Notes: generated by a model from the letters alone, not told the origin. A DNA stretch of 64,000 nt from an uncultured Candidatus Saccharibacteria bacterium (GCA_964406895.1 CAYOTK010000006.1:557-64556); one strand, 5' to 3'; positions 206 to 53,513 are shown, counted from the stretch's first letter. Numbers and translations: made by a program.

Positions 206-541
206 GTGATTAAATTGAATGTTTTTGACGAAAAGAGATTTCGTGAAGAGGTGGGAGAATCGCTGGGAAATGATCTGGAACGAGCGGTCATCGTTCTAAA
301 CAACTTCGGACCAAGACTGTCCGCTGATGTGACCAACGTCATACTTCACGCAATCGACAAAAAAATGGTTGCGGAGGTTTTGGCGCTTCTGGAAGAACAT
401 TGGGAGAAATATCTCTGTTATCAACACCCCAGTGTTCGTGGAACGGTCAGGAGTTGGTCCGGTATCAACGAAACCAAAGCACTGTTTCTGAGAATCTGTC
501 AGGAGGTTCTCAAACTTGAACCCACCATTACGACCGATTGA
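206..541 (+). CDS. hypothetical small protein (111 aa)
   Basis: ORF followed by inverted repeat cgccgcttcgag/ctcgaagcggcg at 547-578; no recognisable motif. Confidence 0.4.
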   Translation: MIKLNVFDEKRFREEVGESLGNDLERAVIVLNNFGPRLSADVTNVILHAIDKKMVAEVLALLEEHWEKYLCYQHPSVRGTVRSWSGINETKALFLRICQEVLKLEPTITTD

Positions 542-546
542 CTCAA

Positions 547-590
547 CGCCGCTTCGAGCCTGACCCTCGAAGCGGCGGTCAGTATTTTCA
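547..590 (+). terminator. stem-loop (12-bp GC-rich stem) downstream of ORF 206..541, weak T-tract
   Basis: cgccgcttcgag ... ctcgaagcggcg perfect inverted repeat followed by gtcagtattttcattt. Confidence 0.45.
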
Positions 591-705
591 TTTAACCATC
601 ACCTCCACGAATCAAACAACATTCTATAAAGCAAACATTATTACTTTCGCTATAATGAAATATTAACAATCAATTTATAAAAACATTCTGTGTTAAAATA
701 CCTTC

Positions 706-1413
706 ATGATTCAATATTTCGGAATGATCATAAAGAAATACTTACGCAAATATGGTTATGATATAAAAAAATATCACCCATTATTTGAAACACTCGTAAA
801 GAAATACAACATATCAACAGTATTTGATATTGGCGCAAACAACGGTCAATTTGCGATGAAAATTCACAAAAAATTACCAAATGGCAGAATTTACTCATTC
901 GAACCATTGAAAGATTGCTATGATATTCTGGTTCAAAACCTTGAGAAAGAACGCATCCAATTCAAAGCATTCAATTTTGCCTTAGGTCAGGAAAATGGCG
1001 AGACCATGATTAAACTCAACAATTTCTCTCCCAGTTCTTCAATTTTGCCAATTACTAAAGAGCACGAAAAACTATATCCCAAGAGCAAAGAGATGAACGA
1101 GAGGAAGATTATTATAAGGAAACTTGATGATGTTGCAAAAGAATTGGAAATTACGAATGACATACTTATCAAAATTGATGTTCAAGGATTCGAGGATAAA
1201 GTCATAAAAGGCGGATCTAACATAATCTCAAAAGCAAAAATTATTCTCGTTGAAAACTCTTTTATTCCCCTCTATGAAGGCCAATCTCTTTTCGGCGACA
1301 TACATAAATTACTTTCAGAATTAGGCTTCAATTATTCTGGTCATGGGGATCAGCATTGGAATGAAAAAACCGGTGAGCTTGTCTACGAGGACTCTATTTA
1401 TACAAAATCTTAG
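706..1413 (+). CDS. FkbM-family SAM-dependent methyltransferase
   Basis: FDIGANNGQFAMKI motif (DIGANxG signature of FkbM-family methyltransferases); 235 aa. Confidence 0.65.
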   Translation: MIQYFGMIIKKYLRKYGYDIKKYHPLFETLVKKYNISTVFDIGANNGQFAMKIHKKLPNGRIYSFEPLKDCYDILVQNLEKERIQFKAFNFALGQENGETMIKLNNFSPSSSILPITKEHEKLYPKSKEMNERKIIIRKLDDVAKELEITNDILIKIDVQGFEDKVIKGGSNIISKAKIILVENSFIPLYEGQSLFGDIHKLLSELGFNYSGHGDQHWNEKTGELVYEDSIYTKS

Positions 1414-1470
1414 GGTGAAATACTTTTTGATCTCATAGACCAAATATAGATATGGATTTATAATATATTC

Positions 1471-3114
1471 ATGAAAAAATCAAACTCAATTTATATATAC
1501 ACCACATTTATAACATTACTAATCGCACTGTATACCTTGTCTTTTTTTACTAGATCAAGTCTCATTCCGTTAGTATTGATAATTTTTTACTCAGTATCCC
1601 TTGTACTCATATACAAGAGGAATAGATTTGCCAAAATAATAAACCAAATATCACTCCTAATCACAGCATCAATCCTTTCACTAAATTTATACACCCTCAT
1701 TCATTCAGGATACAACTATAAAGACAGTTTCTTACAATCACTTTTAGTCTTCTATTTATTTATAATCATCATTTCTATTGCATTTATAATATATTGGCAA
1801 AAATCTCAAGCCATAAAATCATTCTTTGACAAATCAACAACAGGGTCTCAAGCAACAGACACATCAAAAACAGGACCAGACGCCTTAAACAATATTCAAA
1901 ATACCTACAAGTTTAATTCTGATCATATAGTTGTATTGTCTATCTTTTCATTTATAAGCTGTATGATGTTCCTATTCACGGGTTGGGGATTTTTATTCGC
2001 AATACCAATTTCACTTGTATTCAGTTTGGTATATGTATTAATATTTGCATCCTCATTGAAGCGAAACAATGCCAGAGCTTTTGCAGTTTATTCTGTGATC
2101 ATTACGCTCATACTTTCTTATGTTTCAATTCTTCTAAATATTGGCGTGGCATCTGATTCCCCAGAGACATACTACATATCCACTGGTCTTTTCGGCGTTC
2201 CAAGCACAAGTCTCAAAGACATATTCGATCAATTGCTTAATATTTCTTATTATTATTTGATTTTTTCAATTCCAGTAAACCTATTATTCATTAAGAAAAA
2301 TGCAAACAAAATCATTTTTTCGATTATTCCTGTATTGGGCATATTGCTTATAGGTACACATTTCGGATTCATCTATAAAAATTTACCCGAATTGAGAGCC
2401 CAGGTAATAAAAGCAAAACAAACTGCTCAAAAAGAAGAACAAGAAAACATCGAGAAAAGATACGAATACAATCCACAAAATATTAATAAAAAAACATTTG
2501 AGAATCGAGTATTTTCAATATTCACTCCTCCAGAACCAGATCCAAGAATATCTACGAATGATTGCCCTTATTCACTAAAAATCTTAAACGAGAATATAAC
2601 TAAAGATCCAATGAGTGTTAGTTGTTTGAATGAATGGTTGAGTGAAGTTAAACAAGTACCGTTTACAGATAAAAACCCTTTTAGCATTACACTTTCAAAC
2701 TCAAGAAATACACTACTGAAAGGGTATGTAATGGTTCTGGTTGTGGAATTAGAAAATCCAAGCTATGTACGTATTTATGCAAATGGCAACGCTGCTAAAG
2801 ATTGTGGATGCAGAATGTGGCCGTATGACTATTCAGGCATTGTGGATTACAAGATAATCAGCTCATCAACAACAATTTATGAACAAAGTGTAGTACAGGC
2901 AGGAGTTACCGATAAGAAAAGGACAATTATGATACTCTATCCTATCAATATTAATGGACTCAAAGATTTGAATTTCAAACTTTCTCAATTTGATGACAAG
3001 CCAGATGTCAAAGTTACATTAAAAGAATTCGGCATATTGAGACCAAAACCACAGACAACTGATCCAGAGTGGCTAATAGAATGGTCGAAAAAACCAAATC
3101 CCTTCTTAAAATAA
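1471..3114 (+). CDS. polytopic membrane protein with soluble C-terminal domain (547 aa), function unknown
   Basis: About 8 N-terminal hydrophobic helices, then Cys-containing soluble C-terminal half; no recognisable family. Confidence 0.5.
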   Translation: MKKSNSIYIYTTFITLLIALYTLSFFTRSSLIPLVLIIFYSVSLVLIYKRNRFAKIINQISLLITASILSLNLYTLIHSGYNYKDSFLQSLLVFYLFIIIISIAFIIYWQKSQAIKSFFDKSTTGSQATDTSKTGPDALNNIQNTYKFNSDHIVVLSIFSFISCMMFLFTGWGFLFAIPISLVFSLVYVLIFASSLKRNNARAFAVYSVIITLILSYVSILLNIGVASDSPETYYISTGLFGVPSTSLKDIFDQLLNISYYYLIFSIPVNLLFIKKNANKIIFSIIPVLGILLIGTHFGFIYKNLPELRAQVIKAKQTAQKEEQENIEKRYEYNPQNINKKTFENRVFSIFTPPEPDPRISTNDCPYSLKILNENITKDPMSVSCLNEWLSEVKQVPFTDKNPFSITLSNSRNTLLKGYVMVLVVELENPSYVRIYANGNAAKDCGCRMWPYDYSGIVDYKIISSSTTIYEQSVVQAGVTDKKRTIMILYPININGLKDLNFKLSQFDDKPDVKVTLKEFGILRPKPQTTDPEWLIEWSKKPNPFLK

Positions 3115-3126
3115 TAAATCGATCTC

Positions 3127-3702
3127 TTATCCCCCTCTTTTTTCCTTCAGAATTCCAGAAGCCTGCTGATAGTAAAGATCCTCTTCATTGAGATTATAAG
3201 AAACTATTATTGACTCAATCTTGTGTAATTCTTGATCAGTTAATCTTCTGAATCCATCATTTTTCAACATATTTTGTTTTTGTTGAGCAGTGAGTTTGGG
3301 ACCATCAATTCTTCTTGTTGTAAACTCAACAAGTTTTGTATTATGCAGAAGCTCGGCGACGCTTTCATCTCTTGAAGCCATATAGAGCTGCGCCCTTCTA
3401 ATCAATGACTCAACATATTCCTTATACTTATCATCCAATTCAGGCAAAGATTCCCTAACCATATCAATCACTTCGGGCAATGAGTCGCCGTACAATACTA
3501 GACTCGAAACCGAACAGTCATCATGAGAAAATGTATTTGAAGCTATATAACGTATATTATTTACATCGACAGTCGCGGACCTGCCCTCCCCATATTCAAC
3601 ATCCGGTCTTTTTATGCTTTCCAGAGATTGCAAGAAAATCTCCAAGGTTTTCATTCTCTCCAAAGCCTCTGGTTTACCCTCTATTGGTAATTCATAATTC
3701 AT
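3127..3702 (-). CDS. hypothetical protein (191 aa)
   Basis: Clean ORF between convergent neighbours; acidic, no recognisable motif. Confidence 0.45.
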   Translation of the reverse strand: MNYELPIEGKPEALERMKTLEIFLQSLESIKRPDVEYGEGRSATVDVNNIRYIASNTFSHDDCSVSSLVLYGDSLPEVIDMVRESLPELDDKYKEYVESLIRRAQLYMASRDESVAELLHNTKLVEFTTRRIDGPKLTAQQKQNMLKNDGFRRLTDQELHKIESIIVSYNLNEEDLYYQQASGILKEKRGG

Positions 3703-3756
3703 ACAACTAGAATACTTGATAATTTTTTATTTGCAAGAATGAATCATGACAATAAA

Positions 3757-5196
3757 TCATCTCCACCCAGGCAACCACATCCTAGAGAAAAGCTCGGAAT
3801 CATTCAGATTGTAACCATAAGTCAGTGGACTAAAATACAAGAATAAAAGAATAGTAACAATGATAACAACAAAAATAACTGGATAGAAATACTTCTTATT
3901 TCTCATAATATTCAGTAGATAAGCAAGAGCCATGATACTGAATATTAACGCAGGTTCATAGTGATACAAAAACATTACACGTCCTATGAAAGAAAATGGC
4001 AGGAAATTGGCCAAAAATCCAAGAAGAATAAAAATCGTTGGAAAATTGACATAATCTTCCGAAGGATTTTTCTTCGAGAATATATTCTTGCAAAATTCAA
4101 AAACAAAAGAGAAAAATAAGAATAAGACAGAAACAATGCCAGCCCAATAAATAAATGGATTACCAATGAGATATATATAGTGACTAGTAGAATTCCAATA
4201 ATATATAGAACGCAACATGAGTGGCCACGTATACCATTTACTAGAATAAGGGTGTGTAGAACCAAAATTAACGTTAGCTTCAATCATGACCTTATTCAAT
4301 TCTAGGGTTTTTTCCATAGAATTCATCTTATTTGTCTGGGTTAACTTACCATCGACGAAAGCAAAAGGTTTCGGCAATTTACTACCAGAAAGTGAGTTCT
4401 GGAAACGTTCACTCATGTAATTATCCCCCGGACCAGAACGAGGAAGTAGTGAAAAATGAATTACGAAAGAAGATATATATAAGATCAAGAATACAAAAAT
4501 AAATATTGTCTTGAATAATATGTATTCCGACCAGTTTTTGCGACTGCAATTCTTACGAAAAACAGAAAAAGAAATTTGATTGTGCATGAAGATGCGCACA
4601 AATTCTAGGCAAATAATGATGAGTGCGAAAGAAAGACCGGTCCACTTCGTGTCGAAAGCAGCCGAAGCAAGAATGGCAGATAAAACTATAAATAAGAAAG
4701 AAAGTTTACGCGAATGCTTATGAACACCTTGAGCATATATCATATAAACGAGCAAAGAAGTGAAACCAAAAAACAAAAGAAAAGTGTCGAAAAGCACAAA
4801 ACGGGATTGTAAGACAAGAGAATTTTCGAACACAACGAAAAGGCCCGCTATGAAAGAAACGATTTTAGAAAAACCAATTCTGCGCGATATGAAGTATATA
4901 ATTACGGGTATGAGAGAACCCAAAAGACTAGGCAAAATCCTCATCAAGATATATGAATGAGGCAAAGCATTACCTATTGTACTAAAATCGACATTTGGAA
5001 CTGCTCCAACAATATGACTGAAAAGAAGGAGTATCAATTTCGCAAGAGGAGGATGAACATCAAAAAAATAAGTACCATGCCAATAATTACTGATGAAATT
5101 CCCAGAATGAACTTCATCGAACACAACCTGACTCGGATAGCCAAAATCAAAAAAACGAGTTGCCAAACCAAGAACAATAAGAACCAAAGGAGTCAT
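3757..5196 (-). CDS. GT39/PMT-like (GT-C fold) polyprenol-phosphate-sugar-dependent glycosyltransferase (protein O-mannosyltransferase / ArnT-like)
   Basis: N-terminal VVFDEVHSGNF ... YFFDVHPPLAKLILL, matching the conserved DE-loop and FDVHPPLGK motifs of PMT/GT39 enzymes; multi-TM 479 aa. Confidence 0.75.
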   Translation of the reverse strand: MTPLVLIVLGLATRFFDFGYPSQVVFDEVHSGNFISNYWHGTYFFDVHPPLAKLILLLFSHIVGAVPNVDFSTIGNALPHSYILMRILPSLLGSLIPVIIYFISRRIGFSKIVSFIAGLFVVFENSLVLQSRFVLFDTFLLFFGFTSLLVYMIYAQGVHKHSRKLSFLFIVLSAILASAAFDTKWTGLSFALIIICLEFVRIFMHNQISFSVFRKNCSRKNWSEYILFKTIFIFVFLILYISSFVIHFSLLPRSGPGDNYMSERFQNSLSGSKLPKPFAFVDGKLTQTNKMNSMEKTLELNKVMIEANVNFGSTHPYSSKWYTWPLMLRSIYYWNSTSHYIYLIGNPFIYWAGIVSVLFLFFSFVFEFCKNIFSKKNPSEDYVNFPTIFILLGFLANFLPFSFIGRVMFLYHYEPALIFSIMALAYLLNIMRNKKYFYPVIFVVIIVTILLFLYFSPLTYGYNLNDSELFSRMWLPGWR

Positions 5197-5250
5197 GGCA
5201 CAATTCTAACATACATACACAATGTGCCAAATAAATATTATACTTGTATT

Positions 5251-6036
5251 ATGCAAAATGATAATAAACCCAAAGCAGTTATAGTCCTACCAACATACAA
5301 TGAAGCAGATAATATCGGCAAAATGATAGACGAATTGCACAACCACATCTTCCCTATTATTCAAAACTGGCAAATGAAAATACTCATTGTTGATGGTGAT
5401 TCGAAAGACGGTACCAGAGAAATAGTCAAAGACAGAATGTCTCGATATGATGATGTATATCTCTTCCTAGAAAATAAAAAAGAAGGCATAGGATCCGCAT
5501 ACATGAATGGTTTCAAATTGGCTTGTTTTACACTAGGCGCACAAGCTGTTTTCGAATTCGACGCAGACTTCCAGCATCCGCTGAATACTATTCCTGAATT
5601 GTTGAATAAACTCGATCAAGGTTACGATTATATTATTGGTTCAAGGAAAATACCAGGTGGCAGCGAAACAAAAGACAGGAATTTCCTGCGCTCATTCCTG
5701 ACCAACGCAGGATCTTTCATTGCAAGAATGATACTTTTCTTCCCCGAAGAAACATTCAAAATCGTCACCGATCCAACCTCTGGCCTAAGAGCAGTGAGAG
5801 TACAGAATTTCCTGGAAAAAATAGACCTTGATCCAACACACCTATACAGTAAGAAATTTGGCTATAAACTGCAATTATTGAAAGAGCTTATAGATCTCAA
5901 ACCAAAATATACCGAGATCCCACTTCAATTCCAGAATAGAAATGCTGGCAAATCCAAATTCGAATTAGGCACAATATTCGAAATTCTCTATACTTGCTTC
6001 CAAACACGTTTCCATAAGAAAACAAAAAAAGTATAA
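5251..6036 (+). CDS. GT2 polyprenol/dolichol-phosphate mannose synthase-like glycosyltransferase (Ppm1/DPM1-like)
   Basis: MQNDNKPKAVIVLPTYNEADNIGKMIDEL ... ILIVDGDSKDGT ... FEFDADFQHP, typical GT2 Dpm1 motifs. Start placed at ATG 5251 because the longer ORF from 4957 overlaps the divergent GT39 gene. Confidence 0.75.
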   Translation: MQNDNKPKAVIVLPTYNEADNIGKMIDELHNHIFPIIQNWQMKILIVDGDSKDGTREIVKDRMSRYDDVYLFLENKKEGIGSAYMNGFKLACFTLGAQAVFEFDADFQHPLNTIPELLNKLDQGYDYIIGSRKIPGGSETKDRNFLRSFLTNAGSFIARMILFFPEETFKIVTDPTSGLRAVRVQNFLEKIDLDPTHLYSKKFGYKLQLLKELIDLKPKYTEIPLQFQNRNAGKSKFELGTIFEILYTCFQTRFHKKTKKV

Positions 6037-6043
6037 TCAATAC

Positions 6044-8266
6044 ATGAAACTTACTCCACAAAGCAGAGTCACAGAGATATTCCGGACTACTGATCTCCAA
6101 AAAGACGCACTGAGAAGAATGGGCATAGAAAGCATAAAAGATCTCATATATTACTTCCCCGTGAGATATGGCGACACAGCTGAAGCAAAAAATATAGACA
6201 GTCTTATTCACGGAGAGAATGTCGTCGTTTATGGCAAAATAACAAATCTCAAAACCAAGAAAAGTTTCCGAAGCAAAATACCGATGGCGCAAGGATACAT
6301 AGAAGATGAAACTGGCAAAATACCTTGTGTTTGGTTCAATCAACCCTACTTGGCCAAAATGTTTTCCGACAACATGCTTGTGAGAATAGAGGGCAAAGTT
6401 TCAGAGAGAAGGAAGAAGCCTCACTCAATAACATTAAACGAAACCCAAGAGGTTGAAGCCGAATCCGGACAATTGTATTTCTCAAATCCCAAAATAGAAA
6501 AAGTAGACAGTGTACCACTGGGTGTCGGAGATTCTCTTTTCGAAAATCAAGAATCAATACACAATCTCTATCCTGTATATCCTGAATCTCGTGGCATAAG
6601 TTCTAGTTGGATATATCACAATATTCAAAAAGTTTTCAAAGCAGGAATTCTAGAACAAATCGTAGAAACTATACCTGAAGAAGTTCTGAATAAATATCAC
6701 CTCCCTTCTATCAAAACAGCCCTTATATGGATACATGCCCCACAGAAACAAGACGACGCAATATCTGCCAGAAAAAGATTTTCATTCGAGGAAATATTCA
6801 CTATTCAACTAGGCAAACAACAAGCAAGAATTGAATATAATAAAAGTCAGTTCTATGATATTACCGTGAATCCACAACATGTCAGAGAATTCGTAAAACG
6901 TTTCCCTTTCACGGCAACACAAGCACAAATGCGTGCAATCGAAACAATCATAAGTGATATGAGTAAAGGTAAAGCCATGACAAGATTGATCGAGGGCGAT
7001 GTTGGTTCAGGCAAAACAGCGGTTGCAGCTTCTGCAACATATGCGGTCATTACGTCGAAAATGAAAGACATGCCTTCGACCAAACTGAGCGTTGCATACA
7101 TGTGCCCTACCGAAATATTAGCCACGCAACATTTCGAATCATTCATAAAATTTTTCTCTTATATGCCTGTACAAATAGGCCTTCTCACATCTTCAGGTTG
7201 CAGGAAATTCCCGTCAAAAATAAATCCAAAAGGTTGGACAGATATATCTAGGACACAACTATTGAAATGGGTTCAAAACGGCGAAATATCTGTTCTGGTA
7301 GGCACACATTCCCTCATCCAAAAATCTGTGAAATTCAAACACCTTGCATTGGCAATAATAGACGAACAACATCGTTTCGGCACATCGCAAAGGTCAAGAT
7401 TAATCAAAAGAGAAGACACAATCATATCACCCCATTTATTGACCATGACAGCTACGCCCATACCGCGCACTCTGGCTTTGACACTATACGGCGATCTAGA
7501 CATCACTTTATTAGATGAAGTACCAGCAGGAAGAAAACCTGTCATTACCGAACTTGTCCTACCTCAAGATCGAGATGCAACATATGAGAAAGTCCGAGAG
7601 GAGCTAAAGAAGGGACATCAATGTTTCGTCATATGTCCCAGAATTGATGAACCGGACCCAGAGAAAGAAATTTTCATAAATGCAAAATCAGTAAAGGAAG
7701 AAGCAAAAAGATTGAAGAAAAAAGTATTTCCAGAATATGAAATAGGCGTCTTGCACAGCAAACTCTCTCCAAAAGAAAAAGATAATGTCATGAATGATTT
7801 CAAAGATGGCAAAACACATATATTATGTTCGACCTCTGTTGTCGAGGTTGGAGTCAATGTACCGAACGCCACTGTTATTCTCATAGAAGGTGCTGAAAGA
7901 TTTGGCCTTGCGCAACTGCATCAACTCCGCGGTAGGGTTCTTAGAAGCACTGATCAAGCTTATTGCTATGTATTCACAGAAACAAATTCCAAGAAATCAA
8001 TCGATAGATTGAAGGCCTTGCAAACAGCAAAAAATGGTTTTGAATTGGCTGAAATAGACCTAAGTCAACGAGGAGCTGGCATGCTGTCGGGCGCAAAACA
8101 GTGGGGCGTATCTGATATCGCAATGGAAGCATTGAAGAATTTGAAAATGGTTGAGGCGGCGAGAAATGAAGCAGCGAGAATTATAGAGGAAGATCCACAA
8201 CTAGAGAAATATCCTCTTCTCAAAGAACGGGTCAAGGCGCATATGGTAGTCTCTCATTTTGAATAG
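6044..8266 (+). CDS. recG: ATP-dependent DNA helicase RecG
   Basis: Wedge-domain N-terminus (YYFPVRYGD), Walker A GDVGSGKT, IIDEQHRFG motif, helicase C-terminal domain; 740 aa. Confidence 0.9.
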   Translation: MKLTPQSRVTEIFRTTDLQKDALRRMGIESIKDLIYYFPVRYGDTAEAKNIDSLIHGENVVVYGKITNLKTKKSFRSKIPMAQGYIEDETGKIPCVWFNQPYLAKMFSDNMLVRIEGKVSERRKKPHSITLNETQEVEAESGQLYFSNPKIEKVDSVPLGVGDSLFENQESIHNLYPVYPESRGISSSWIYHNIQKVFKAGILEQIVETIPEEVLNKYHLPSIKTALIWIHAPQKQDDAISARKRFSFEEIFTIQLGKQQARIEYNKSQFYDITVNPQHVREFVKRFPFTATQAQMRAIETIISDMSKGKAMTRLIEGDVGSGKTAVAASATYAVITSKMKDMPSTKLSVAYMCPTEILATQHFESFIKFFSYMPVQIGLLTSSGCRKFPSKINPKGWTDISRTQLLKWVQNGEISVLVGTHSLIQKSVKFKHLALAIIDEQHRFGTSQRSRLIKREDTIISPHLLTMTATPIPRTLALTLYGDLDITLLDEVPAGRKPVITELVLPQDRDATYEKVREELKKGHQCFVICPRIDEPDPEKEIFINAKSVKEEAKRLKKKVFPEYEIGVLHSKLSPKEKDNVMNDFKDGKTHILCSTSVVEVGVNVPNATVILIEGAERFGLAQLHQLRGRVLRSTDQAYCYVFTETNSKKSIDRLKALQTAKNGFELAEIDLSQRGAGMLSGAKQWGVSDIAMEALKNLKMVEAARNEAARIIEEDPQLEKYPLLKERVKAHMVVSHFE

Positions 8267-8340
8267 TCCGCCCTCTAGGATTCGAACCTAGGACCCCAGA
8301 GGTATAAGCTCTGTGCTCTAACCAACTGAGCTAAGGGCGG
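8267..8340 (-). tRNA. tRNA-Ile with anticodon UAU (reads AUA)
   Basis: 74-nt cloverleaf on minus strand: acceptor CCGCCCT/AGGGCGG, D-arm GCTCAGTTGGTTAGAGC, anticodon arm CAGAG-CTTATAC-CTCTG (U33, anticodon TAT, A37), T-arm CTAGGTTCGAATCCTAG, discriminator A. Abuts recG stop. Confidence 0.75.
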
Positions 8341-8368
8341 GTTATTGGTTACATTATTATCAGTTTAA

Positions 8369-8415
8369 AAGTTCTGTGCTCGGTGCTTTCTAGCCAAAAC
8401 AGCTAAGGGCGGGTG
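8369..8415 (-). pseudogene. degenerate partial copy of the 5' half of the adjacent tRNA-Ile (pseudo-tRNA fragment)
   Basis: ctgtgctcggtgctttctagccaaaacagctaagggcggg aligns with ctgtgctctaaccaactgagctaagggcggg of the intact tRNA, and the flanking gggcgggt[tg]t..ttggtta is also duplicated. Confidence 0.4.
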
Positions 8416-8416
8416 T

Positions 8417-8440
8417 TTGGTTATTGGTTATTGGTTATTT
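8417..8440. repeat. tandem heptamer repeat (TTGGTTA)x3
   Basis: tttggttattggttattggttattt read directly. Confidence 0.5.
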
Positions 8441-8472
8441 ATGGTGAGCCTGTCGAACCATACCCTCATATC

Positions 8473-10380
8473 TTACTGATTTTTTGTCTTCAACGCAATT
8501 CCATGAACACTCAAGAAACCTTCATACTCATCTCGCTCTATAGTCTCCTTCTCTATCAACTTCTTGGCTACAGCCTCAAATACGAGACGATTGTCTATCA
8601 AAGTCTTCTCTGCTTTGACCTTAGCCTCATGCATAATCTTCGTAATCTCAGCATCAACCTCCGCTGCCACGCGCTCGGAGTAATCCCTGTCATTCACACC
8701 CATACCAAACAACACTCTTCCTGTCGGACTCTCGAGAGCTACCGGACCGAGCTTATCTGACATGCCGTACTGAGTGACCATACTCCTCGCAAGAGCAGTC
8801 GACACCTGCAAATCATTCGAGGCACCTGTTGTTATATCACCAAACATCATTTGTTCGGCCACATAACCTCCGAGAGAAACAGCGATGTCGTCCAAGAATT
8901 CACGTCTTGATTGCAATTTCCTATCTTCAATCGGTAATTTGAGTGTATAACCCGCCGCACGACCACGAGAAATAATTGAGATCTTATGTACAGGATCTGC
9001 ATTAGGTAAAACCGAAGCAACAATAGCGTGTCCCGCTTCGTGGTAGGCTGTTATTTCTTTTTCTTTCGCTGACAATATATGACTTCTCCTTTCCGGACCG
9101 AGCATTACTTTCTCGATCGATCTTACTAGATCGAATTGACCTATCTTTGTTCTTTCTTCTCTGGCGGCCAATATAGCTGACTCATTCATAAGTGAATACA
9201 AATCTGCTCCAGAAAAACCCGGCGTTCTTTCTGCTACCACCTGAAGATTGACGTCTTCTGCCAATTTCTTCTTGGATGCATGTATCTTCAATATTTCTTC
9301 CCTATCACTTCGATCTGGCAAATCAATAACTACTCTTCTGTCGAATCTTCCGGGTCTCAAAAGAGCTGGGTCTAGTACATCTGGTCTATTTGTGGCAGCC
9401 ATCACTATGACTTTTTCGTTTGGCTCGAAGCCGTCCATCTCAACAAGTATTTGATTGAGTGTTTGTTCGCGCTCGTCATTACCACCACCAACACCCGAAC
9501 CTCTTGCTCGACCTACTGCGTCTATCTCGTCTACGAATACGATAGAAGGTGCAGTATTTTTGGCTGCCCTGAATAAATCTCTGACCCTCGAAGCACCTAC
9601 ACCTACGAACATTTCTACGAACTCTGAACCAGAAATCGAATAAAAAGCGACATTTGCCTCACCAGCCACCGCTCTTGCCAATAATGTCTTACCACAACCT
9701 GGAGCGCCCATAAGAATAACACCCTTTGGAATTTCTGCGCCTATTTCTATGAATTTCTTTGGATTCTTCAAGAAGTCAACGATCTCTGCCAATTCTTGCT
9801 TTGCTTCTTTTGCACCCGCAACATCTTTGAAAGTTACTTTTTGTTTCTGATCATCGGGCATACTTATTCTGGCTTTTGATTGACTGAATGACAAAGCTTG
9901 CATTCCAGCCCCTCTCACTTGTCTCGATAGAAACCAAATGAAGAAAATCAAGAGCAATAATGGTGCGAGAAATGGCATTAGTAAACTAGCCCAATAAGTA
10001 AATCCGCTAGGCTCAACCACACTGATGGTGGTTGTTGATAATTTTTCTTCCTTGACCCCCAATCTAGAAAGAGTCTCTGTGATCGACGAATCATTTTCCT
10101 TCTGAGAAATTTTCACCGTGCCATCTTTGTATGCTGCAGATATTTTATTATCAGATATTGTCAACGACTGTATTTTGCCTGAATTGATATCGGATGCGAC
10201 CGTATTCAAAGATATTTTGTTTGATTGCTGATTGACATTAGAAAATTCATTGTATATTCCAGCAATAAGCAAGAAGACAATAATAACTATTGCTAGTGCG
10301 TTCAAAAAACGAAGTCCTGAAGACAGGAAACTATTACCCTTCTTACCTTTTGGGTTTTTATTCTTAGGATTAACGGGCAT
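8473..10380 (-). CDS. ftsH: ATP-dependent zinc metalloprotease FtsH
   Basis: N-terminal TM, AAA Walker [22 protein letters not shown] region, zinc-binding HEAGHAIV; 635 aa. Confidence 0.95.
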
Positions 10381-10442
10381 ATGTTTATATATGCTACTTT
10401 AGCTTCTTTTGAGCGTTGTGGCAAGGATTGAACGCTCAACCA

Positions 10443-11168
10443 CTATTTCACCTTCAGCGTAGACATTATTCCAAAGAAATATTCTTCTGCTCTACTAGGA
10501 ATAATCACGCCTGCAATTTCATAAGCTTTCTTATAATCAGCATTGATTGGTGAAAATTCTGGCACAAGAGGACTTGTAATAACAACTGTTTTATTAGAAG
10601 AGATAACTAAATAATAAATATTCAAGCCGCAACCTTCAACTCCAGGAGTTACATGATATCCACTATAAGGTCCGAACTTATATGGACTGTTGGAAACATA
10701 ATCCCATTCCGGCCAACCGCTAGTCTTCAAATATTCTCGAACGCTCTGATTGACAACTTTTATTGATACCTGGAAATCATTTAGAACATTAAGCATTGGA
10801 CCACCTCCTTTCATGTCACAAAAATCATAATGTTTATAAGGCACAGAATGAGAAACAGTAACTTCGCCGTTTTCTTCTTTCAGTGTCAGGATTGATGGAT
10901 AGTCAAAAGAAAAATTACTTCCAGAATATGACTGAATTTTTGAGACTGTAGATTGAACGCCCGCAGGAATGATCTGTGCATTATTGTCTTCCTGTATTTT
11001 GTTTACAATATTTTTTGGGATTTGAGTATTTACAAAAGAATCTTCAATGACTACGTCTGATTTCATCTCCACATTTGCTTTTCTGAAATAAAATAAACCG
11101 CCTGCCAGCAAAGCAACGATGATCACTAATAAAGATACTATTACATAATTTTTTTGTGTGTTGTTCAT
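10443..11168 (-). CDS. hypothetical membrane-anchored/secreted protein (241 aa)
   Basis: Single N-terminal TM helix (VIVSLLVIIVALLAGGLFYF) then soluble domain; no recognisable motif. Confidence 0.45.
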   Translation of the reverse strand: MNNTQKNYVIVSLLVIIVALLAGGLFYFRKANVEMKSDVVIEDSFVNTQIPKNIVNKIQEDNNAQIIPAGVQSTVSKIQSYSGSNFSFDYPSILTLKEENGEVTVSHSVPYKHYDFCDMKGGGPMLNVLNDFQVSIKVVNQSVREYLKTSGWPEWDYVSNSPYKFGPYSGYHVTPGVEGCGLNIYYLVISSNKTVVITSPLVPEFSPINADYKKAYEIAGVIIPSRAEEYFFGIMSTLKVK

Positions 11169-11233
11169 GAGGTGATTATATTATAAAGGGATGAGTAAGT
11201 AAAAATGAGAAATTAGAAAATTGCAATAATAAA

Positions 11234-11257
11234 CGGGAATCTCGCCTTACAGGCGCT
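11234..11257. repeat. 24-nt direct repeat copy (cgggaatctcgccttacaggcgct), partner at 11835..11858; distal boundary of an ssrA-associated islet
   Basis: 24/24 identity with 11835..11858. Confidence 0.6.
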
Positions 11258-11459
11258 CGGAGCTATTTTTTATTGTGGACTTGGTGAGCCAAAGTTGGAA
11301 CAAACTACATCCTTGGGTTTTTGAGGCGTCTGAAATGATTACAGGGGGCAGGAGGTTTCGGAAAAAGACTTACATCTGCTTAACAGTTAGTTATCCATTA
11401 ATCACATGATGAGATTAAAACTTACATAAATGAGAAAGACCTTCCTGAGAAAGCCATTT

Positions 11460-11760
11460 GAAGGTCAGTCTCATGAAGGTCTGGTCAGTGACATGTGTTA
11501 ATGTAACTCGCGATTTCCATGGCATACTTGCTGTCCAGGCTATCGCCAACTTCACCAACACACACGTCGTTTACTCTCCGAGCCACAAACCTTTGCTGAC
11601 TCGCATCCAACTGGGCATTTTCATTAACGCCTTCCCGGAGAAAGATAACGAACATTCGTCGGCGATTCTCAGAATGCGCACAAAGATCTGCCATATTCGC
11701 AAGAAACCTATCCGCTTTCATTTTTTCAGAAGGCATTTCACCTTGGTCCTGTTGTTTCTT
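11460..11760. other. GC-enriched (~48% GC) segment with overlapping candidate ORFs on both strands (11458..11946 +, 11485..11736 -); coding strand unresolved
   Basis: Base composition clearly above the ~35% window background; neither ORF has a recognisable motif. Confidence 0.3.
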
Positions 11761-11823
11761 TGGAGGCAGGAATACCTCAAAACTACTACTAAAATGTTAG
11801 CATGTATATACATAAAAGTCAAT

Positions 11824-11842
11824 AGTGGAGATGGCGGGAATC
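11824..11842. repeat. 19-nt direct repeat of the ssrA 3' terminus (agtggagatggcgggaatc), partner at 12361..12379
   Basis: 19/19 identity to the tmRNA T-arm/acceptor 3' end; the next 16 nt instead continue into the 11234 repeat. Confidence 0.65.
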
Positions 11843-11867
11843 TCGCCTTACAGGCGCTGTACAGGTC

Positions 11868-12131
11868 TCACATTTTCGTCTCAAAACCGTTTGCATACAT
11901 ATTTATCAAAAAATCCTTCTTTTCTCTACGCCACTTCTTTATTTGATTTTCCCTTTTGCGCGCCTCACTGAAAGTTAAATATTCCTCCAAAAATACAATA
12001 CTAAATCCACCAATCTTAGTAAAAGAAGCACCTCTTTTTGAGTTGTGATCATAAAGACGCTTTTGAGGGTCGTTAGAAACACCGACATACAATCGATTAT
12101 TCATATCACGTATCATATAAACAAATGGCAT
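11868..12131 (-). CDS. stand-alone GIY-YIG nuclease family protein (UPF0213-like, 87 aa)
   Basis: FVYMIRDMNNRLYVGVSNDPQKRLYDHN ... EARKRENQIKKWRREKK matches GIY-YIG (URI) domain motifs. Confidence 0.7.
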   Translation of the reverse strand: MPFVYMIRDMNNRLYVGVSNDPQKRLYDHNSKRGASFTKIGGFSIVFLEEYLTFSEARKRENQIKKWRREKKDFLINMYANGFETKM

Positions 12132-12362
12132 ATTATTAATATAAAAAATTATGGTTTTTAAATGTTAAAACGCGCAATCAAAGATCAAAAACATATGCAA
12201 AAATGTCCTTCGACTACGCTTCGATCATATTATAAGATAATACATAGAGTTCGTGCCTCAGCTTCGCTCAGGGCACTCGCCTCTATTGCAATTCTCAATG
12301 TTCGTGGCACATGGTGGTTTACCACGAGCGAGTCCTTCGCGATTAGCGAAGGACGAGTCGAG

Positions 12363-12733
12363 TGGAGATGGCGGGAATCGAACCCGCGTGCAATCGAGAT
12401 TTGTCGGTTACTTCTACGATGATATCAAACTTTATCCGCAAAGCGGTTTAACAAATGTGCCCAAGAAAGTTTGCAAAAAGCACAATTGCGATCTCTATGT
12501 TTCGGGTCTTGGAGTGAGAAGTTCCACTACCCTACATCCAAGTTATTACGCCAACACTACAGTTAGGATCCCTGCAGAGTGACGGCACTTAAACAAGTGC
12601 GAATGCGAAGTCCTTGGCTCCGAAATACGGAGATACAGAAGATTTAGCATTTATGGTTTCTGTCAGATTTACGAGTTAACAGTGCTCGCATCGCATGACC
12701 GGAAATGTTCAATTGTCTAGACCGATCATCCCC
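12363..12733 (-). ncRNA. ssrA: tmRNA (SsrA)
   Basis: 5' GGGGATGATCGGTCTAGAC..., 3' GCGGGTTCGATTCCCGCCATCTCCA (T-arm and acceptor with G3:U70 alanine identity pair), located immediately downstream of smpB on the same strand. Candidate tag ORF GCT AAA ... CTT GTT TAA. Confidence 0.8.
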
Positions 12734-12788
12734 AAACTTTATTCAATAACCAAAATTTGGTTATTGTTTATTGGTGTTTGATTATTAT

Positions 12789-13235
12789 TTACCTGTCAAT
12801 GAACTCTCTTCTAATTTCCCTATCCACTTCTCTCTTCTTTGTGGTTTCGCGCTTGTCGAATTTCTTTTTACCACGGACAACTGCAATACTTACCTTAACT
12901 AAAGGACCCTTATTATATATTGAAATTGGCACTATTGTCAAACCCTTACTACCCTCAGCATCAGCTAGACGTCGAATTTCATCTCTAGTCAGAAGTAGGC
13001 GGCGATTTCTTCTTGGTTCATAACCTTTCGGAGTATTGTTTTCCTGATACGGTGGCAAGAATATATTCACGGCGTAAGCTTCTCCCCCACGCACGATGAC
13101 ATAGGCGCCATCTAGAGAACCTTGGCCTTTCTTTATTGATTTAACTTCGAAACCATAGAGTTCGATTCCTGCTTCGTATTTGTCGATGATTTCATAGTTA
13201 AAATTTACCTTTTTATTATCTACGAAAGTTGTCAT
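12789..13235 (-). CDS. smpB: SsrA-binding protein SmpB
   Basis: 148 aa, FNYEIIDKYEAGIELYGFEVKSIKKGQGSLDGAYV typical of SmpB; adjacent to tmRNA. Confidence 0.9.
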   Translation of the reverse strand: MTTFVDNKKVNFNYEIIDKYEAGIELYGFEVKSIKKGQGSLDGAYVIVRGGEAYAVNIFLPPYQENNTPKGYEPRRNRRLLLTRDEIRRLADAEGSKGLTIVPISIYNKGPLVKVSIAVVRGKKKFDKRETTKKREVDREIRREFIDR

Positions 13236-17763: not shown

Positions 17764-18147
17764 TTATTTTTTTATTTTAAGGAAAACAAAAGAACCGATA
17801 GCACCGCCAATAAAATCATTAACTAGATCTTTCAAGGTATCAATGATGTATGGATTAGACCAAAGTGGAAAACCGGAAACATCTTCTACTATTTCGAATA
17901 ATTCCCAAAGCAAACCAAAAAACATTGTTCCGAGAATGATGTTTCGGAAAAGAGTTTTATTGGACATGTTTTTCGTCCTTCTGCCCATGATAGCAATACA
18001 AAGCAACGCGATGCCAAATCCGCCTGCAATATGCATACCAACATCAAAATACTGTATGTAATACCATCCATTAAACATAGCGAATATATGAGCAACCAAT
18101 ATAAGTATAAGAACTACAAGTGCTAAAACATATCTTTTTATTATCAT
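17764..18147 (-). CDS. small 4-TM membrane protein (127 aa), function unknown
   Basis: Four hydrophobic helices; no family-specific motif recognised. Confidence 0.4.
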   Translation of the reverse strand: MIIKRYVLALVVLILILVAHIFAMFNGWYYIQYFDVGMHIAGGFGIALLCIAIMGRRTKNMSNKTLFRNIILGTMFFGLLWELFEIVEDVSGFPLWSNPYIIDTLKDLVNDFIGGAIGSFVFLKIKK

Positions 18148-22164: not shown

Positions 22165-22779
22165 TTATTTCTTAACGTTCCTCTTCTCGACTTTTTTGAC
22201 TGGTTTTGCTTCTTTCTTTGCATCTACTGACTTTTTTGTTTCTTTCTTTGCTTTTGGTGTTGATTCTGCTACTTCTTCTACTACTGGTGCGCTCGCAACT
22301 TTTGCAACTGGGGCAACAACTTCTTCTTTGACTACAAGTAATGTTACCACACCTCCCGCTTTCTCTATCTTCTCCTTTGCACTTGTAGAGATGAAACAAC
22401 CAGAAATATTGAGGGATTTGGTCAATTCACCATCACCAAGAATTTTAACAGTTGGTATTTTGCCAGACAAAGTACTCAATATACCCTTCTCAACTATTGT
22501 TGTTGGTGTAACACTTTCTCCTGCCTTGAATGATGTCTCCAAAGCTGAAAGGTTGACGATTTCAGGCTTGATGCTGTATGACTTGAAAGAATTGACTCCA
22601 CGACCGCGAAGCTTAGGAAGTTTCTTGATGATATCTCGCCATTCTGGTCTGCGCTTGTTACCAGCACGTGCTGATTGACCCTTACCTCCGCGACCAGCTG
22701 TTTTACCACGCTTGCCTCCACGAGCAACTATCATTCGCTTTGTATTTGGATGTATTCTTTTGAGTTGATGAGTTTGCAT
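22165..22779 (-). CDS. rplO: 50S ribosomal protein L15 with K/A/V/E-rich C-terminal extension
   Basis: MQTHQLKRIHPNTKRMIVARGGKRGKTAGRGGKGQ...; 204 aa versus ~145 canonical. Confidence 0.85.
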   Translation of the reverse strand: MQTHQLKRIHPNTKRMIVARGGKRGKTAGRGGKGQSARAGNKRRPEWRDIIKKLPKLRGRGVNSFKSYSIKPEIVNLSALETSFKAGESVTPTTIVEKGILSTLSGKIPTVKILGDGELTKSLNISGCFISTSAKEKIEKAGGVVTLLVVKEEVVAPVAKVASAPVVEEVAESTPKAKKETKKSVDAKKEAKPVKKVEKRNVKK

Positions 22780-22789
22780 GGTATTTGTA

Positions 22790-23485
22790 TTAATTCTTAG
22801 CTTTCATGTCTTTCCTAGAAACCTTAGTCAAATTGCTCAATGCTTCTATTGCTGACTTTGCATTATTAAGTTTGTTTTTACTTCCTGAAAGGAATTTGGC
22901 ACAAACGTCTTTTATACCTGCCAATTCGATGACTGAACGAGCCGAGCTTCCTGCTACGACTCCTCTACCTCTTGCAGGAAAAATCATGATGCGAGCACTT
23001 GCGTATTTGCCCTCTACTGCGTGAGGAATTGTCATTTGAGGCGAAAGAGGTATTTTGATCAAGTTCTTTTTGGCCTCTCTTGTGGCTTTCTCTACAGCAG
23101 ATGCTGTATCTATACTCTTACCAAGACCGACACCTACTCTGCCCTTCCTATCACCAGCCACAACTGCGACACTGAAATTCATACGACGTCCGCCAGATGT
23201 AACTCTTGTTACTCTGCGAATATCAATAATCTTACTGTCGAATTCTGGCTTGACTCTTTCGCGATTTTCATTTCTGTTGTTTCTAGAACCACCTCTTTGG
23301 CCTTGTGCTGAATTCTGGCCCCCATGTCCACCTCGACGTGCTGTGTCACCACGGCCTCTGCGACCCAAAGTAACTTTTGAAGCGCCCTCAGTCACAGTCA
23401 CAGTTGCCTCACTTGCAACAGGAATAACAGGAGCAGTATTTGCTGTATTAGTATCTGTATTAATTTTTGTGTCTTTTTCTGTCAT
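22790..23485 (-). CDS. rpsE: 30S ribosomal protein S5 with N-terminal low-complexity extension
   Basis: IIDIRRVTRVTSGGRRMNFSVAVVAGDRKGRVGVGLGKS core; ~80 aa T/N/R/G-rich N-terminal extension. Confidence 0.85.
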   Translation of the reverse strand: MTEKDTKINTDTNTANTAPVIPVASEATVTVTEGASKVTLGRRGRGDTARRGGHGGQNSAQGQRGGSRNNRNENRERVKPEFDSKIIDIRRVTRVTSGGRRMNFSVAVVAGDRKGRVGVGLGKSIDTASAVEKATREAKKNLIKIPLSPQMTIPHAVEGKYASARIMIFPARGRGVVAGSSARSVIELAGIKDVCAKFLSGSKNKLNNAKSAIEALSNLTKVSRKDMKAKN

Positions 23486-43083: not shown

Positions 43084-43458
43084 TTACATCATCTTCACAT
43101 CTATATTGACTCCCGACGGCAAACTCATATTGGTCAAGGCTTCAATGACTTTTGGATTTGGATTGATAATGTCAATAAGTCTCTTGTGAACTCTCATTTC
43201 GAATTGTTCACGTGAATTCTTATCGATGAATGAGGAGCGGTTTACTGTGTATTTCTTGATTTCTGTTGGCAAAGGTACTGGTCCATGTATTACAGCATCG
43301 TATCGTGCAGCTGTATCCATGATCTGCTTCAATGAAGCATCGAGAATTTTGTGTTCATATGCTCGAACACGTATTCTAAGCTGATGAACAACTCCGTCAA
43401 CCTTAACCTTCTTCTTTTTTGTTTCTTTTGTAGCAGTCATGTTTTTATTACTAAGCAA
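43084..43458 (-). CDS. rpsJ: 30S ribosomal protein S10 with N-terminal extension
   Basis: Core [21 protein letters not shown]; 124 aa. Confidence 0.9.
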
Positions 43459-44635
43459 CTACCTTTGTAACGACTCCAGCACCTACGGTCTTACCTCCTT
43501 CACGAACTGCGAAACGCTGTTGATTTTCTAGAGCTACAGGAGCTACTAGTTTGACCTTGAATGTAATTGTATCTCCAGGCATGACCATTTCTACCTTCTC
43601 AGGAAGAGTAACCTCGCCAGTAACATCTGTTGTTCTGATATAGAACTGAGGCTTGTATCCTGTGAAGAATGGAGTGTGGCGACCACCTTCTTCTTTCTTC
43701 AAAACGTAAACTTCTGCCTCGAATTCTGTGTGAGGCTTGACTGAACCTGGTTTTGCCAATACTTGTCCACGAGAAACATCATCCTTTGCTGTACCACGTA
43801 GTAGCAAACCAGCATTGTCTCCTGCCAAACCTTCCTTTAGAGACTTGTTGAACATTTCGATACCTGTAATAGTTGTCTTCGTAGTATCTTTGAAGCCGAT
43901 TATTTCGACTTCTTCACCTACTGTGATCTTTCCGCGTTCAATACGACCTGTAACTACTGTTCCACGACCTTCGATAGAGAATATATCTTCGATAGGCATA
44001 AGGAATGTTTTGTCGACTTCACGAACTGGAGTTGGGATATAAGTATCGAGAGCATTCATAAGCTCATCGATCTTTGCTGTCCATTCTGCTTCACCGTTCA
44101 AGGCGCCTGTTGCTGAACCGCGAATAACTGGAACGTTTTTACCGTCGAATTGATTCTTGGTTAGGAGCTCACGCACTTCTTCCTCAACAAGGTCAATAAG
44201 ATCCTTTTCTGGTACCAAGTCACACTTGTTCAAAAAGACAATGATCTTTGGAACACCAACCTGACGTGCTAGCAATACGTGTTCGCGTGTCTGAGGCATA
44301 ACACCATCTGTTGCTGATACAACAAGAATAGCACCGTCCATTTGAGCGGCACCTGTAATCATGTTTTTCACGAAGTCAGCGTGTCCTGGACAGTCGATGT
44401 GAGCATAGTGACGAGATGCAGACTCATATTCAACGTGTGAAAGTGAGATTGTTACTGTCTTTGTTGCATCACGAACTGTACCTCCCTTTGTAATATCTGA
44501 GTAAGCTTTGACTTGAGCCATACCCTTCTTGGACTGAACAGCCAAGAGCGCCGCTGTCAAAGTAGACTTTCCGTGGTCAATGTGACCAATTGTTCCTACG
44601 TTAACGTGTGGCTTTGTACGATTGAATTCTGCCAT
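43451..44635 (-). CDS. tuf: elongation factor Tu
   Basis: [22 protein letters not shown]-motifs; 394 aa. Confidence 0.97.
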
Positions 44636-44868
44636 ATTATTATTTTATTGCTTTGGCTCGCATCGCATGGGCGTGAAATAACAACCATACGACGAGATCC
44701 AAAGATAAATTATATTAGTTAATAAAACGCAATTTTATTTAGCGTAGCGTCATGTTAACACACGCTATCATTTATTGCAAATTCTCTATATATCAAGACC
44801 TTACGCACTTCACCCCATACAAGAAGAGTAATAAAGAATACCCTACTCTATGTATGGGGTGTAAATGC

Positions 44869-46359: not shown

Positions 46360-46486
46360 ATAATATTGTGGGTTTTGTTTAATTCGAACCCAATATAATA
46401 ATGTGCGCATCATATCATAAATCTAGAAAAAATCAAAATAATAAAAGCTCCTTTCGGAGCTTTTATTATTCGAAGAATTAGTACTA

Positions 46487-49606: not shown

Positions 49607-49773
49607 ATTATTAAATAATTTATATAAATTCATCTTAAAAAAATAAGTACTGAATACAATTATACACCTCTCGTCAGTAATCACAAAAAATTTTATCCCC
49701 TAATATTCCCCAACAACAAAGAGCGGTATTACCGCCCCTTGTTGTGAGAACCTATTTAAATAGTCATGAAATA

Positions 49774-51918: not shown

Positions 51919-52003
51919 ATAATAATAAGTAAATAATAAAAAGCACTAGGCCTTGTTGCGTATAAGATACAGCAAAGTCGCTTATTTAGCAATACGATAC
52001 TTG

Positions 52004-52915: not shown

Positions 52916-53029
52916 AGTAATAGTTTAATAATTAATTATACTAATAATAGCACCTATACATAAAAATATAAACAAAAAACGCTCATCGATATACTTTGAG
53001 CGTTTTTTGTTTTTGAATTTTGAGCGTTT

Positions 53030-53500: not shown

Positions 53501-53513
53501 TGTATTTTATTTA

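Follow-up and report, generated by a model that had tools for sequence, protein, structure and literature searches.

A 64,000-nucleotide stretch of DNA from an uncultured Candidatus Saccharibacteria bacterium (GCA_964406895.1 CAYOTK010000006.1:557-64556; hereafter the window, with positions counted from its first letter) carries a five-gene locus at positions 706-6036, in which two adjacent genes for glycosyltransferases of families 39 (GT39) and 2 (GT2) probably constitute a module for lipid-linked protein O-mannosylation. Its likely targets would be the Ser/Thr/Pro-rich (S/T/P-rich) stalks of large surface proteins. What the analysis shows is the family membership of the two enzymes, the conservation of their active sites, the coupling of their genes and a clade-specific linkage to stalk proteins.

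Bacteria that belong to the Candidate Phyla Radiation (CPR, or Patescibacteria) are ultrasmall, and it is the cell surface that decides host attachment. All cultivated members are episymbionts, and a paper on the Saccharibacteria pilus describes protein glycosylation in these bacteria as unexplored. Experimental work on prokaryotic protein O-mannosylation has been restricted to the Actinobacteria, where the process is GT39-dependent. Automatic annotation already names the GT2 and GT39 genes, so the enzymes are of a known kind; it is the pathway that is unstudied in CPR bacteria.

The GT39 and GT2 enzymes and the coupling of their genes

The GT39 gene (3757-5196, minus strand) encodes a protein O-mannosyltransferase-like GT-C enzyme of 479 amino acids with some 10-11 transmembrane (TM) segments. 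Two Pfam models match above their cutoffs, PF02366 (PMT, the N-terminal 7-TM module; 135.2 bits against 22.7, E 3.7e-39, residues 5-251) and PF16192 (PMT_4TMC; 157 bits against 32.4, E 5.6e-46, residues 294-478). About 40 residues separate the two modules, and the Pfam search found no MIR domain; because the actinobacterial Pmt model (NF058602, 530 positions) is likewise short, the missing domain is compatible with GT39 membership. The solved structures matched include yeast Pmt1 (E 2.7e-52), a Pmt4-type enzyme (1.5e-51), yeast Pmt4 (1.1e-41) and Pmt2 (4.8e-35), and these fungal matches (E 1e-35 to 1e-52) span both conserved halves of the protein.

The DE motif and FDVHPPL signature reported in the original prediction are indeed present, as VVFDEVH (D27, E28) and FFDVHPPL (residues 44-51). 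D27-E28 align with D77-E78 of ScPmt1 and are invariant in 22 CPR homologues, D137 (within R132-x4-D137, the Rx4-6D motif of external loop 2) aligns with D189, and R406 and F409 (the Rx2(Y/F) motif of external loop 5) align with R649 and F652. Mutagenesis of the M. tuberculosis PMT has identified D74, D176, R441 and Y444, equivalent to ScPmt1 D77, D189, R649 and F652, as essential (PMC12331936). Their counterparts in the window enzyme, D27, D137, R406 and F409, are invariant or nearly so across the 22 aligned CPR homologues. The Pfam search gave no match to PMT_2 (PF13231, GT83) at E <= 0.01, and the search of solved structures gave no ArnT chain at E <= 1. Together with the above-cutoff PMT and PMT_4TMC matches, this sustains the earlier assignment to GT39 rather than GT83, and no firm grouping with GT83 ArnT enzymes emerged. 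The protein is a firm GT39 member, for which mannosyl transfer to protein Ser/Thr is predicted.

Judged by its sequence, the window enzyme is a member of a distinct, large GT39 subfamily and not an actinobacterial Pmt equivalog. A word-indexed search returned more than 1100 homologues, and an exhaustive search of 1.8 billion representatives yielded, at E <= 1e-3, 4494 representatives of 50%-identity clusters. The top 150 relatives include proteins of eukaryotic PMT length (738-903 amino acids; P0215, P0220, P0250, P0262, P0265 and P0271) that match in two stretches, as expected from an inserted domain. It may be that the CPR subfamily stands nearer to the eukaryotic PMTs than to the actinobacterial enzymes.

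The GT2 gene (5251-6036, plus strand) encodes a polyprenyl-phosphate mannose synthase-like enzyme of 261 amino acids, without a TM segment, that matches PF00535 (E 3e-21) and carries the signature DADFQHP. Its best solved relative is the dolichyl-phosphate mannose synthase of Pyrococcus furiosus, PfDPMS (PDB 5mlz; E 3.7e-25), aligned over residues 8-250, the whole catalytic domain, whereas ArnC (1e-10) and GtrB (1e-6) match the N-terminal half only. PfDPMS residues E12, D89, D91, Q93, H94, R117, R131, K178, R202 and K208 are identical in the alignment, while S135 and F177 are replaced by Thr and Tyr; the window residues concerned are E18, D104-A-D106-F-Q108-H109, R132, R147, T151, a Tyr-Lys pair, and the Arg and Lys of QNRNAGKSK. 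In PfDPMS, D91 and Q93 serve metal and diphosphate, D89, H94, R117 and K178 contact the mannosyl group, R117, R131 and S135 the acceptor phosphate, and R202 and K208 lie in the A-loop (PMC5526996). With its substrate-contacting residues kept or conservatively replaced, the enzyme is DPM1/DPMS-like, as originally proposed. The motif DADFQHP includes the His that contacts the mannosyl group; ArnC has DADLQN. NCBIfam models score low, with 52 bits for ArnC (cutoff 529), 49.9 for PgfS (cutoff 500; E 2.5e-13) and weak matches to AglJ and PpgS too. We regard GT2 as a predicted polyprenyl/dolichyl-phosphate mannose synthase, mannose being the presumed sugar.

Five open reading frames (ORFs) had been placed at 706-6036; all five are present, and gene calls on identical and related contigs concur. 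A 359-amino acid GT2 ORF from 4957, which overlaps GT39 by 240 bp, was rejected as an ORF-extension artefact. Because the PF00535 match starts at residue 109 of that ORF, and because a 261-amino acid gene is called on the identical contig (locus L057) and in two relatives (L141 and L052), the GT2 start is the ATG at 5251. The divergent GT2 and GT39 genes are thus 54 bp apart (5197-5250). The spacer between them holds overlapping promoter-like hexamers for both genes, TTGGCA-16-TAGAAT with a TG on the minus strand (5230-5203) and TACACA-17-TATACT on the plus strand (5216-5244), which are consensus matches only. Divergent promoters are plausible here; in a promoter and terminator scan the regional count was not clearly higher than in shuffles.

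Approximately 100 CPR GT39 loci were gathered from two collections and by direct look-ups. GT2 and GT39 form a divergent or adjacent pair in L001, L052, L060, L067, L072, L138 and L141. The very close relatives L052 (GT2 78% and GT39 72% identical) and L141 have the same divergent pair, and GT2 lies directly beside GT39 in L060, L067, L072 and L138. In L001 the order is GT2, a gene of the GT87 family (28.2 bits, cutoff 25) and GT39, the GT2 being the closest orthologue (57%) outside the window's own lineage. GT87 enzymes are polyprenol-phosphate-mannose-dependent mannosyltransferases. On three further contigs (L055, L056 and L061) the two enzymes form a single 694-amino acid GT2-GT39 fusion protein (P0064). 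On the 469-kb contig of P0014, next to dcw genes, one strand carries GT39, a GT2 with a GtrA_DPMS_TM domain, a PIG-M-like mannosyltransferase and a 1394-amino acid PG_binding_1 protein. Because of this recurrent adjacency in several lineages and the fusion in P0064, we consider GT2 and GT39 to be functionally coupled, as the original prediction had it. Since GT2 lacks a TM segment and is fused to GT39 in relatives, its probable docking site is the GT39 protein.

Immediately upstream of the fusion gene is a gene for a 427-amino acid protein with VTT (DedA-type) and PAP2 domains (L055:3061-4344; also in L056 and L061). Such a protein would fit polyprenyl-phosphate recycling or flipping for the GT2-GT39 pathway.

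Candidate substrates and the fusA-tuf slot

The original prediction pointed to PT-rich surface proteins as targets, and three such proteins are encoded in the window, all on the minus strand. They lie in the str operon (43451-53936, minus strand), whose order is rpsL, rpsG, the gene for a 303-amino acid protein, fusA, the genes for proteins of 1065 and 514 amino acids, tuf and rpsJ. The 1065-amino acid secreted protein (46487-49684), in the fusA-tuf slot, has PG_binding_1 twice and, at its C-terminal end, some 100 residues rich in P/T/S, with 85% S/T/P in its richest 40-residue window. Beside it in the slot, the 514-amino acid secreted protein (44869-46413) has CPxGYxCT repeats, PG_binding_1 and PT-rich linkers. 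The 303-amino acid protein (52004-52915), membrane-anchored or secreted, is 36% S/T/P with long Thr/Asn/Ser runs, and has no family match in Pfam or NCBIfam.

Support for these proteins as targets comes independently from comparison with relatives, which encode GT39, with or without GT2, beside S/T/P-stalk proteins, some of which share a domain with the 1065-amino acid protein. Residues 782-943 of the latter are 27% identical over 168 residues (E 2e-10) to a 550-amino acid GT39 neighbour in L053, and residues 831-924, in the same domain, are 25% identical (E 3e-6) to a 1464-amino acid GT39 neighbour in L067; a phmmer search of the protein against the loci gave weak matches only (E ~3e-5). The 514-amino acid protein shares its N-terminal CPxGYxCTP motif with the 550-amino acid neighbour in L053, a locus that is syntenic with the window from ComEC, superoxide dismutase, an M50 protease, S12, S7 and EF-G through to EF-Tu. 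The sites mannosylated in mycobacteria, too, are disordered and rich in P/A/S/T (PMC12331936).

A neighbour-joining tree divides the CPR GT39 proteins into clade A (about 16 lineages, including the window) and a large clade B. In clade A, GT39 lies 1-5 genes from giant secreted S/T/P-stalk proteins in at least nine independent loci. The stalk-protein genes are found in L002 (three genes, among them 487-5121 and 5148-9023), L053/L054 (L053:6334-7986), L059 (127-963), L060, L062 (1670-3904, minus strand), L063 (5280-6638, minus strand), L066, L067 (11291-15685, minus strand), L138 (three genes, 1321-3555, 3654-7988 and 10101-12953) and L140 (43-4188). GT39 occupies the fusA-tuf slot itself in six of the loci (L053, L059, L066, L067, L138 and L140), and the P0014 locus has the same association of GT39 with a surface protein in a different context. 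It was also observed that, in this CPR clade, the slot between fusA and tuf houses large surface-protein genes and, in relatives, GT39 with or without GT2 as well.

Most clade-A stalk proteins end in a common motif (e.g. SVLASVFYALGDFVDSIFAQ), an amphipathic stretch of about 20 residues (…ASVFYAVGDFLDSxF) that follows the long S/T/P stalk. Among 5444 ORF tails, a hidden Markov model (HMM) of this motif matched only stalk-protein loci, including L066, which was not in the seed. There is no Pfam or NCBIfam model for the motif, which may act as a novel signal for sorting or anchoring. In several stalk proteins the signal peptide, too, is closely followed by a related motif (ASFFSDFVAWI, ASVLGDLVGWI and ASWWSDFIDWV).

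Clade B loci, by contrast with those of clade A, have neither GT2 nor stalk proteins. On the divergent side GT39 is accompanied by thioredoxin reductase, RpiB, a 2-hydroxyacid dehydrogenase or FAD oxidase, Rpe and a PfkB kinase, and on the other side by superoxide dismutase and glutaredoxin (L095:5773-13103 and about 50 similar loci). This neighbourhood is housekeeping synteny and is uninformative on function. Three genes from GT39 in L014 is a gene (5687-7045) for a 452-amino acid protein with an S/T/P-rich stalk, LPPTG and a hydrophobic tail, which looks like a sortase substrate and is possibly another type of glycosylation target.

More tentatively, and with rather less confidence than we place in the two-gene module, it could be that one CPR clade has a dedicated glycoprotein coat, made of a previously undescribed giant secreted stalk-protein family and encoded in or next to the fusA-tuf slot together with its own GT39 and lipid-sugar synthase. 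The coat proteins would combine a signal peptide, varied globular domains, an S/T/P stalk and the C-terminal motif, often with several per genome. The window would then be a rearranged version, in which the enzymes have moved next to recG and diverged substrates have been left in the slot. Such a coat would be the bacterial counterpart of the mannoproteins in fungal walls, or of those archaeal S-layer glycoproteins that are Thr-rich and anchored at the C-terminus, and it might mediate the attachment of episymbionts to their hosts.

Proposed mechanism and competing explanations

In the mechanism that we favour, GT2 would supply lipid-linked mannose on the inner side of the membrane, as dolichyl-phosphate-mannose synthases and actinobacterial Ppm1 do, and a flippase would move the mannosyl-phospholipid to the outer face. 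There, GT39 would move the mannose onto Ser/Thr of unfolded Pro/Thr/Ser-rich segments leaving the Sec channel, with D27 in the first external loop as the catalytic base and D137, R406 and F409 surrounding the donor phosphate and the acceptor. Comparative genomics suggests as acceptors the S/T/P-rich stalks and linkers of secreted peptidoglycan-binding proteins, which in the window would be the proteins of 1065, 514 and 303 amino acids. Four parts of this scheme are inferences: which sugar is used, what accepts it, that GT2 docks on GT39, and that a flippase takes part.

Several observations weigh against it. Neither enzyme reaches an NCBIfam equivalog threshold, the GT39 protein scoring 50.6 bits against a cutoff of 800 for actinobacterial Pmt (NF058602), nor were genes for GDP-mannose synthesis or for a flippase observed in the window. 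About 40 kb separate the enzyme genes from those of the candidate substrates, and the C-termini of the window's two slot proteins are degenerate and fail the motif HMM. Counted over all CPR GT39 loci, the excess of S/T/P-rich proteins among immediate neighbours falls short of significance (5/163 against 10/905, p=0.064); the stalk-protein link holds in one clade only, and inherited synteny could account for part of it, although the link recurs in another setting at the P0014 locus. Some GT39-adjacent GT2s (in L067, L060, L005 and L111) have no DPMS motif, and in Cohnella (among loci L022-L051, from Cohnella and other Bacillota; ~10001-12300) distant GT39 homologues of 22-26% identity are each directly followed by a GtrB-type GT2 (DADLQDP), so that the sugar may differ between GT39 lineages. 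In the literature searched we found neither biochemical or glycoproteomic evidence for O-mannosylation in any CPR bacterium nor a paper joining CPR/Patescibacteria with GT39 or O-mannosyltransferase.

The same two-step lipid-linked mechanism could instead serve a non-protein acceptor, namely a wall glycopolymer or a glycolipid or lipoglycan, as with YfhO/CsbB, GtrB-type or PimE/Emb-type GT-Cs. CPR walls are Gram-positive-like, and in such walls decoration systems of this sort are common; the acceptor is not readable from sequence, the housekeeping synteny of clade B offers no clue to a protein substrate, and some relatives pair GT39 with GT-Cs such as GT87, which are lipoglycan builders in mycobacteria. 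Yet the window enzyme keeps the four catalytic and acceptor-groove residues of PMTs, including the aromatic residue of the Rx2Y/F motif, the prokaryotic GT39 enzymes characterised so far are protein O-mannosyltransferases, and GT39 repeatedly adjoins S/T/P-stalk secreted proteins in several genomic contexts. We therefore consider a non-protein acceptor unlikely.

A similarly low probability attaches to a pathway that takes in all five genes. The original prediction had suggested such an extension, with sugar methylation as an example; an FkbM-type enzyme would then methylate the glycan, and the other two products would act as accessories (anchor, flippase or chaperone). The first of these genes (706-1413, plus strand) encodes a cytoplasmic FkbM/RfbT-family S-adenosylmethionine-dependent methyltransferase, which matches TIGR01444 (108.5 bits, cutoff 37.7), PF05050 (82.4 against 22.7, E 5e-23) and, also above cutoff, the RfbT O-antigen methyltransferase family PF05575 (41.9 against 27.9); no solved relative was found at E <= 0.01. 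Having neither signal peptide nor TM segment, it could act only before flipping, which limits its place in such a pathway. It adjoins the locus in L052 (75% identity) and L141 only. It is possible that it is a glycan methylase, given the local synteny at roughly genus level and the resemblance to the RfbT family. In L052 the FkbM flank (6401-9124) also carries an SduA_C gene (Shedu-type defence) and a serine recombinase, which suggests that the locus borders on a mobile or defence island, in a variable region.

The second gene (1471-3114, plus strand) encodes a 547-amino acid membrane protein with 8-9 TM helices (the 8-TM protein) and a C-terminal soluble domain. Like the 191-amino acid protein below, it has no Pfam or NCBIfam match. 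Its AlphaFold2 model (predicted local distance difference test, pLDDT, 70) consists of a helical bundle and an extracytoplasmic beta-sandwich. That it might be a hidden GT-C enzyme was rejected, since a Foldseek search of the PDB had no match at E <= 0.001; weak matches to carbohydrate-binding modules and toxin domains (E ~4e-3) were seen. The carbohydrate-binding-like resemblance of the external domain, and the lack of a membrane anchor in GT2, speak for an accessory role. The gene is nevertheless absent from L052, and its homologues in L142 and L143 are close to RecG and lack a GT39 within 8 kb; it is a lineage-specific insertion or deletion outside the conserved module. In syntenic contigs (FtsH, RecG … tRNA synthetase, PilM, type II secretion system ATPase) the same position is occupied by GT39 in L139 (8001-9368) and by an 8-TM homologue in L142 (8001-9683), and the recG-proximal slot appears variable.

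The third gene (3127-3702, minus strand), 54 nucleotides downstream of GT39 on the same strand, encodes a cytoplasmic orphan protein of 191 amino acids with only three close homologues in 5.8 billion proteins. It accompanies the GT2/GT39 pair in L052 and L141 only, and in L052 it is 44% identical whereas the neighbouring genes are 72-89% identical, so it is evolving much faster than they are. The AlphaFold2 model was unusable (pLDDT 48). A C-terminal EKRGG is invariant in all five homologues, down to 45% identity; the di-glycine end recalls ubiquitin-like modifiers, and no E1, E2 or protease neighbours were seen.

Gene order favours the five-gene pathway to the extent that it is the same in L141 and, minus the 8-TM gene, in L052. 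In tblastn and phmmer searches of 137 loci, however, all three genes were absent from the approximately 100 other CPR GT39 loci. They are neighbours in a locally variable region, and this portion of the original prediction is not supported.

Protein O-glycosylation by GT39 with a sugar other than mannose, such as glucose or an N-acetyl-hexosamine, is also improbable. The Cohnella arrangement, the CPR neighbours without a DPMS motif and the weak NCBIfam matches to ArnC, PgfS, AglJ and PpgS could all be read in this way, and the Paenibacillaceae seem to have an uncharacterised GT39-like system of their own with a possibly different lipid-linked sugar. In the window, however, GT2 aligns with PfDPMS over its whole catalytic domain and with a much better E-value than with ArnC or GtrB, the mannosyl-hydroxyl contacts D89, H94, R117 and K178 are kept, and in L001 the 57% orthologue has a GT87 mannosyltransferase linked to it.

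Aminoarabinose modification of lipid A or another lipid by an ArnT-type (GT83) enzyme is effectively refuted by the family assignment in the Pfam and solved-structure searches, despite the GT-C fold common to GT39 and GT83 and the faint likeness of GT2 to ArnC, which is confined to its N-terminal half, and it fits poorly with the CPR hallmarks of a window in which no lipopolysaccharide genes were seen among the genes examined.

Known systems and wider context

The claim that exactly this pair performs O-mannosylation in Actinobacteria holds as a functional parallel and fails as orthology, in view of the Pmt equivalog score. Like actinobacterial Pmt (Rv1002c, SCO3154 and Cg1014) and Ppm1, the window proteins combine a MIR-less GT39 GT-C enzyme with a GT2 that has a TM-less catalytic unit, and both systems have the same four essential residues; both would also draw mannose from a lipid-linked donor and place it on disordered, P/T/S/A-rich segments of secreted proteins. 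The actinobacterial Pmt and Ppm1 genes are unlinked, whereas those of the window are adjacent and divergent, and are fused in relatives. No partner like the Lnt-like Ppm2/D1 of Ppm1 was seen in the window system, and candidate substrates of the window type belong to a CPR-specific giant stalked family.

With the fungal and animal PMTs (Pmt1/Pmt2, Pmt4 and POMT1/2, working with DPM1), the window GT39 has in common the DE motif, the FDVHPPL segment and both the PMT and PMT_4TMC halves. It differs in having no MIR domain, in its length (479 amino acids against ~750-820), in its shorter N-terminus and in its lipid carrier, presumably a bacterial polyprenol and not dolichol. GT2 keeps the DAD-x-QH motif of PfDPMS and human DPM1, together with the acceptor-phosphate residues (R, R and S/T) and the A-loop Arg/Lys. 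Unlike PfDPMS, a type III enzyme, it has no four-helix TM domain and resembles the TM-less type II DPM1, while its relative in the P0014 locus has GtrA_DPMS_TM.

A further parallel is offered by Pgf of S. mutans (PgfS and PgfM1/PgfM2) and by Gtr/CsbB-YfhO, in which a cytoplasmic GT2 makes a polyprenyl-phosphate-sugar for an external membrane transferase. Pgf modifies a Thr-rich region of wall-anchored adhesins. The window differs in that its external transferase is a GT39, GT2 scores well below the PgfS cutoff, and no small GtrA-like flippase gene lies at 706-6036; a small TM ORF at 17764-18147 has no Pfam match.

Were the proposal to prove right, eukaryote-like O-mannosylation would extend to a second major bacterial lineage with concrete substrates named, and lectins and pmt inhibitors would become handles for studying or enriching CPR organisms. 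The gene fusion and tight operons offer a compact system for heterologous reconstitution. The most original by-product of the analysis is the family of surface proteins with a stalk and a C-terminal motif.

The identification of the organism as a CPR bacterium is borne out by its GT39 homologues, which are overwhelmingly labelled Patescibacteria, and by the S5 and L15 genes (22165-23485, minus strand), which are 10 bp apart with no L30 gene between them. Loss of L30 is a CPR hallmark. RecG and FtsH, beside the locus, are 65-71% identical to proteins of Patescibacteria and Saccharibacteria metagenome-assembled genomes. Finally, the window encodes at 8266-8340 (minus strand) a tRNA-Ile with the anticodon TAT (UAU), an uncommon way of reading AUA in bacteria.

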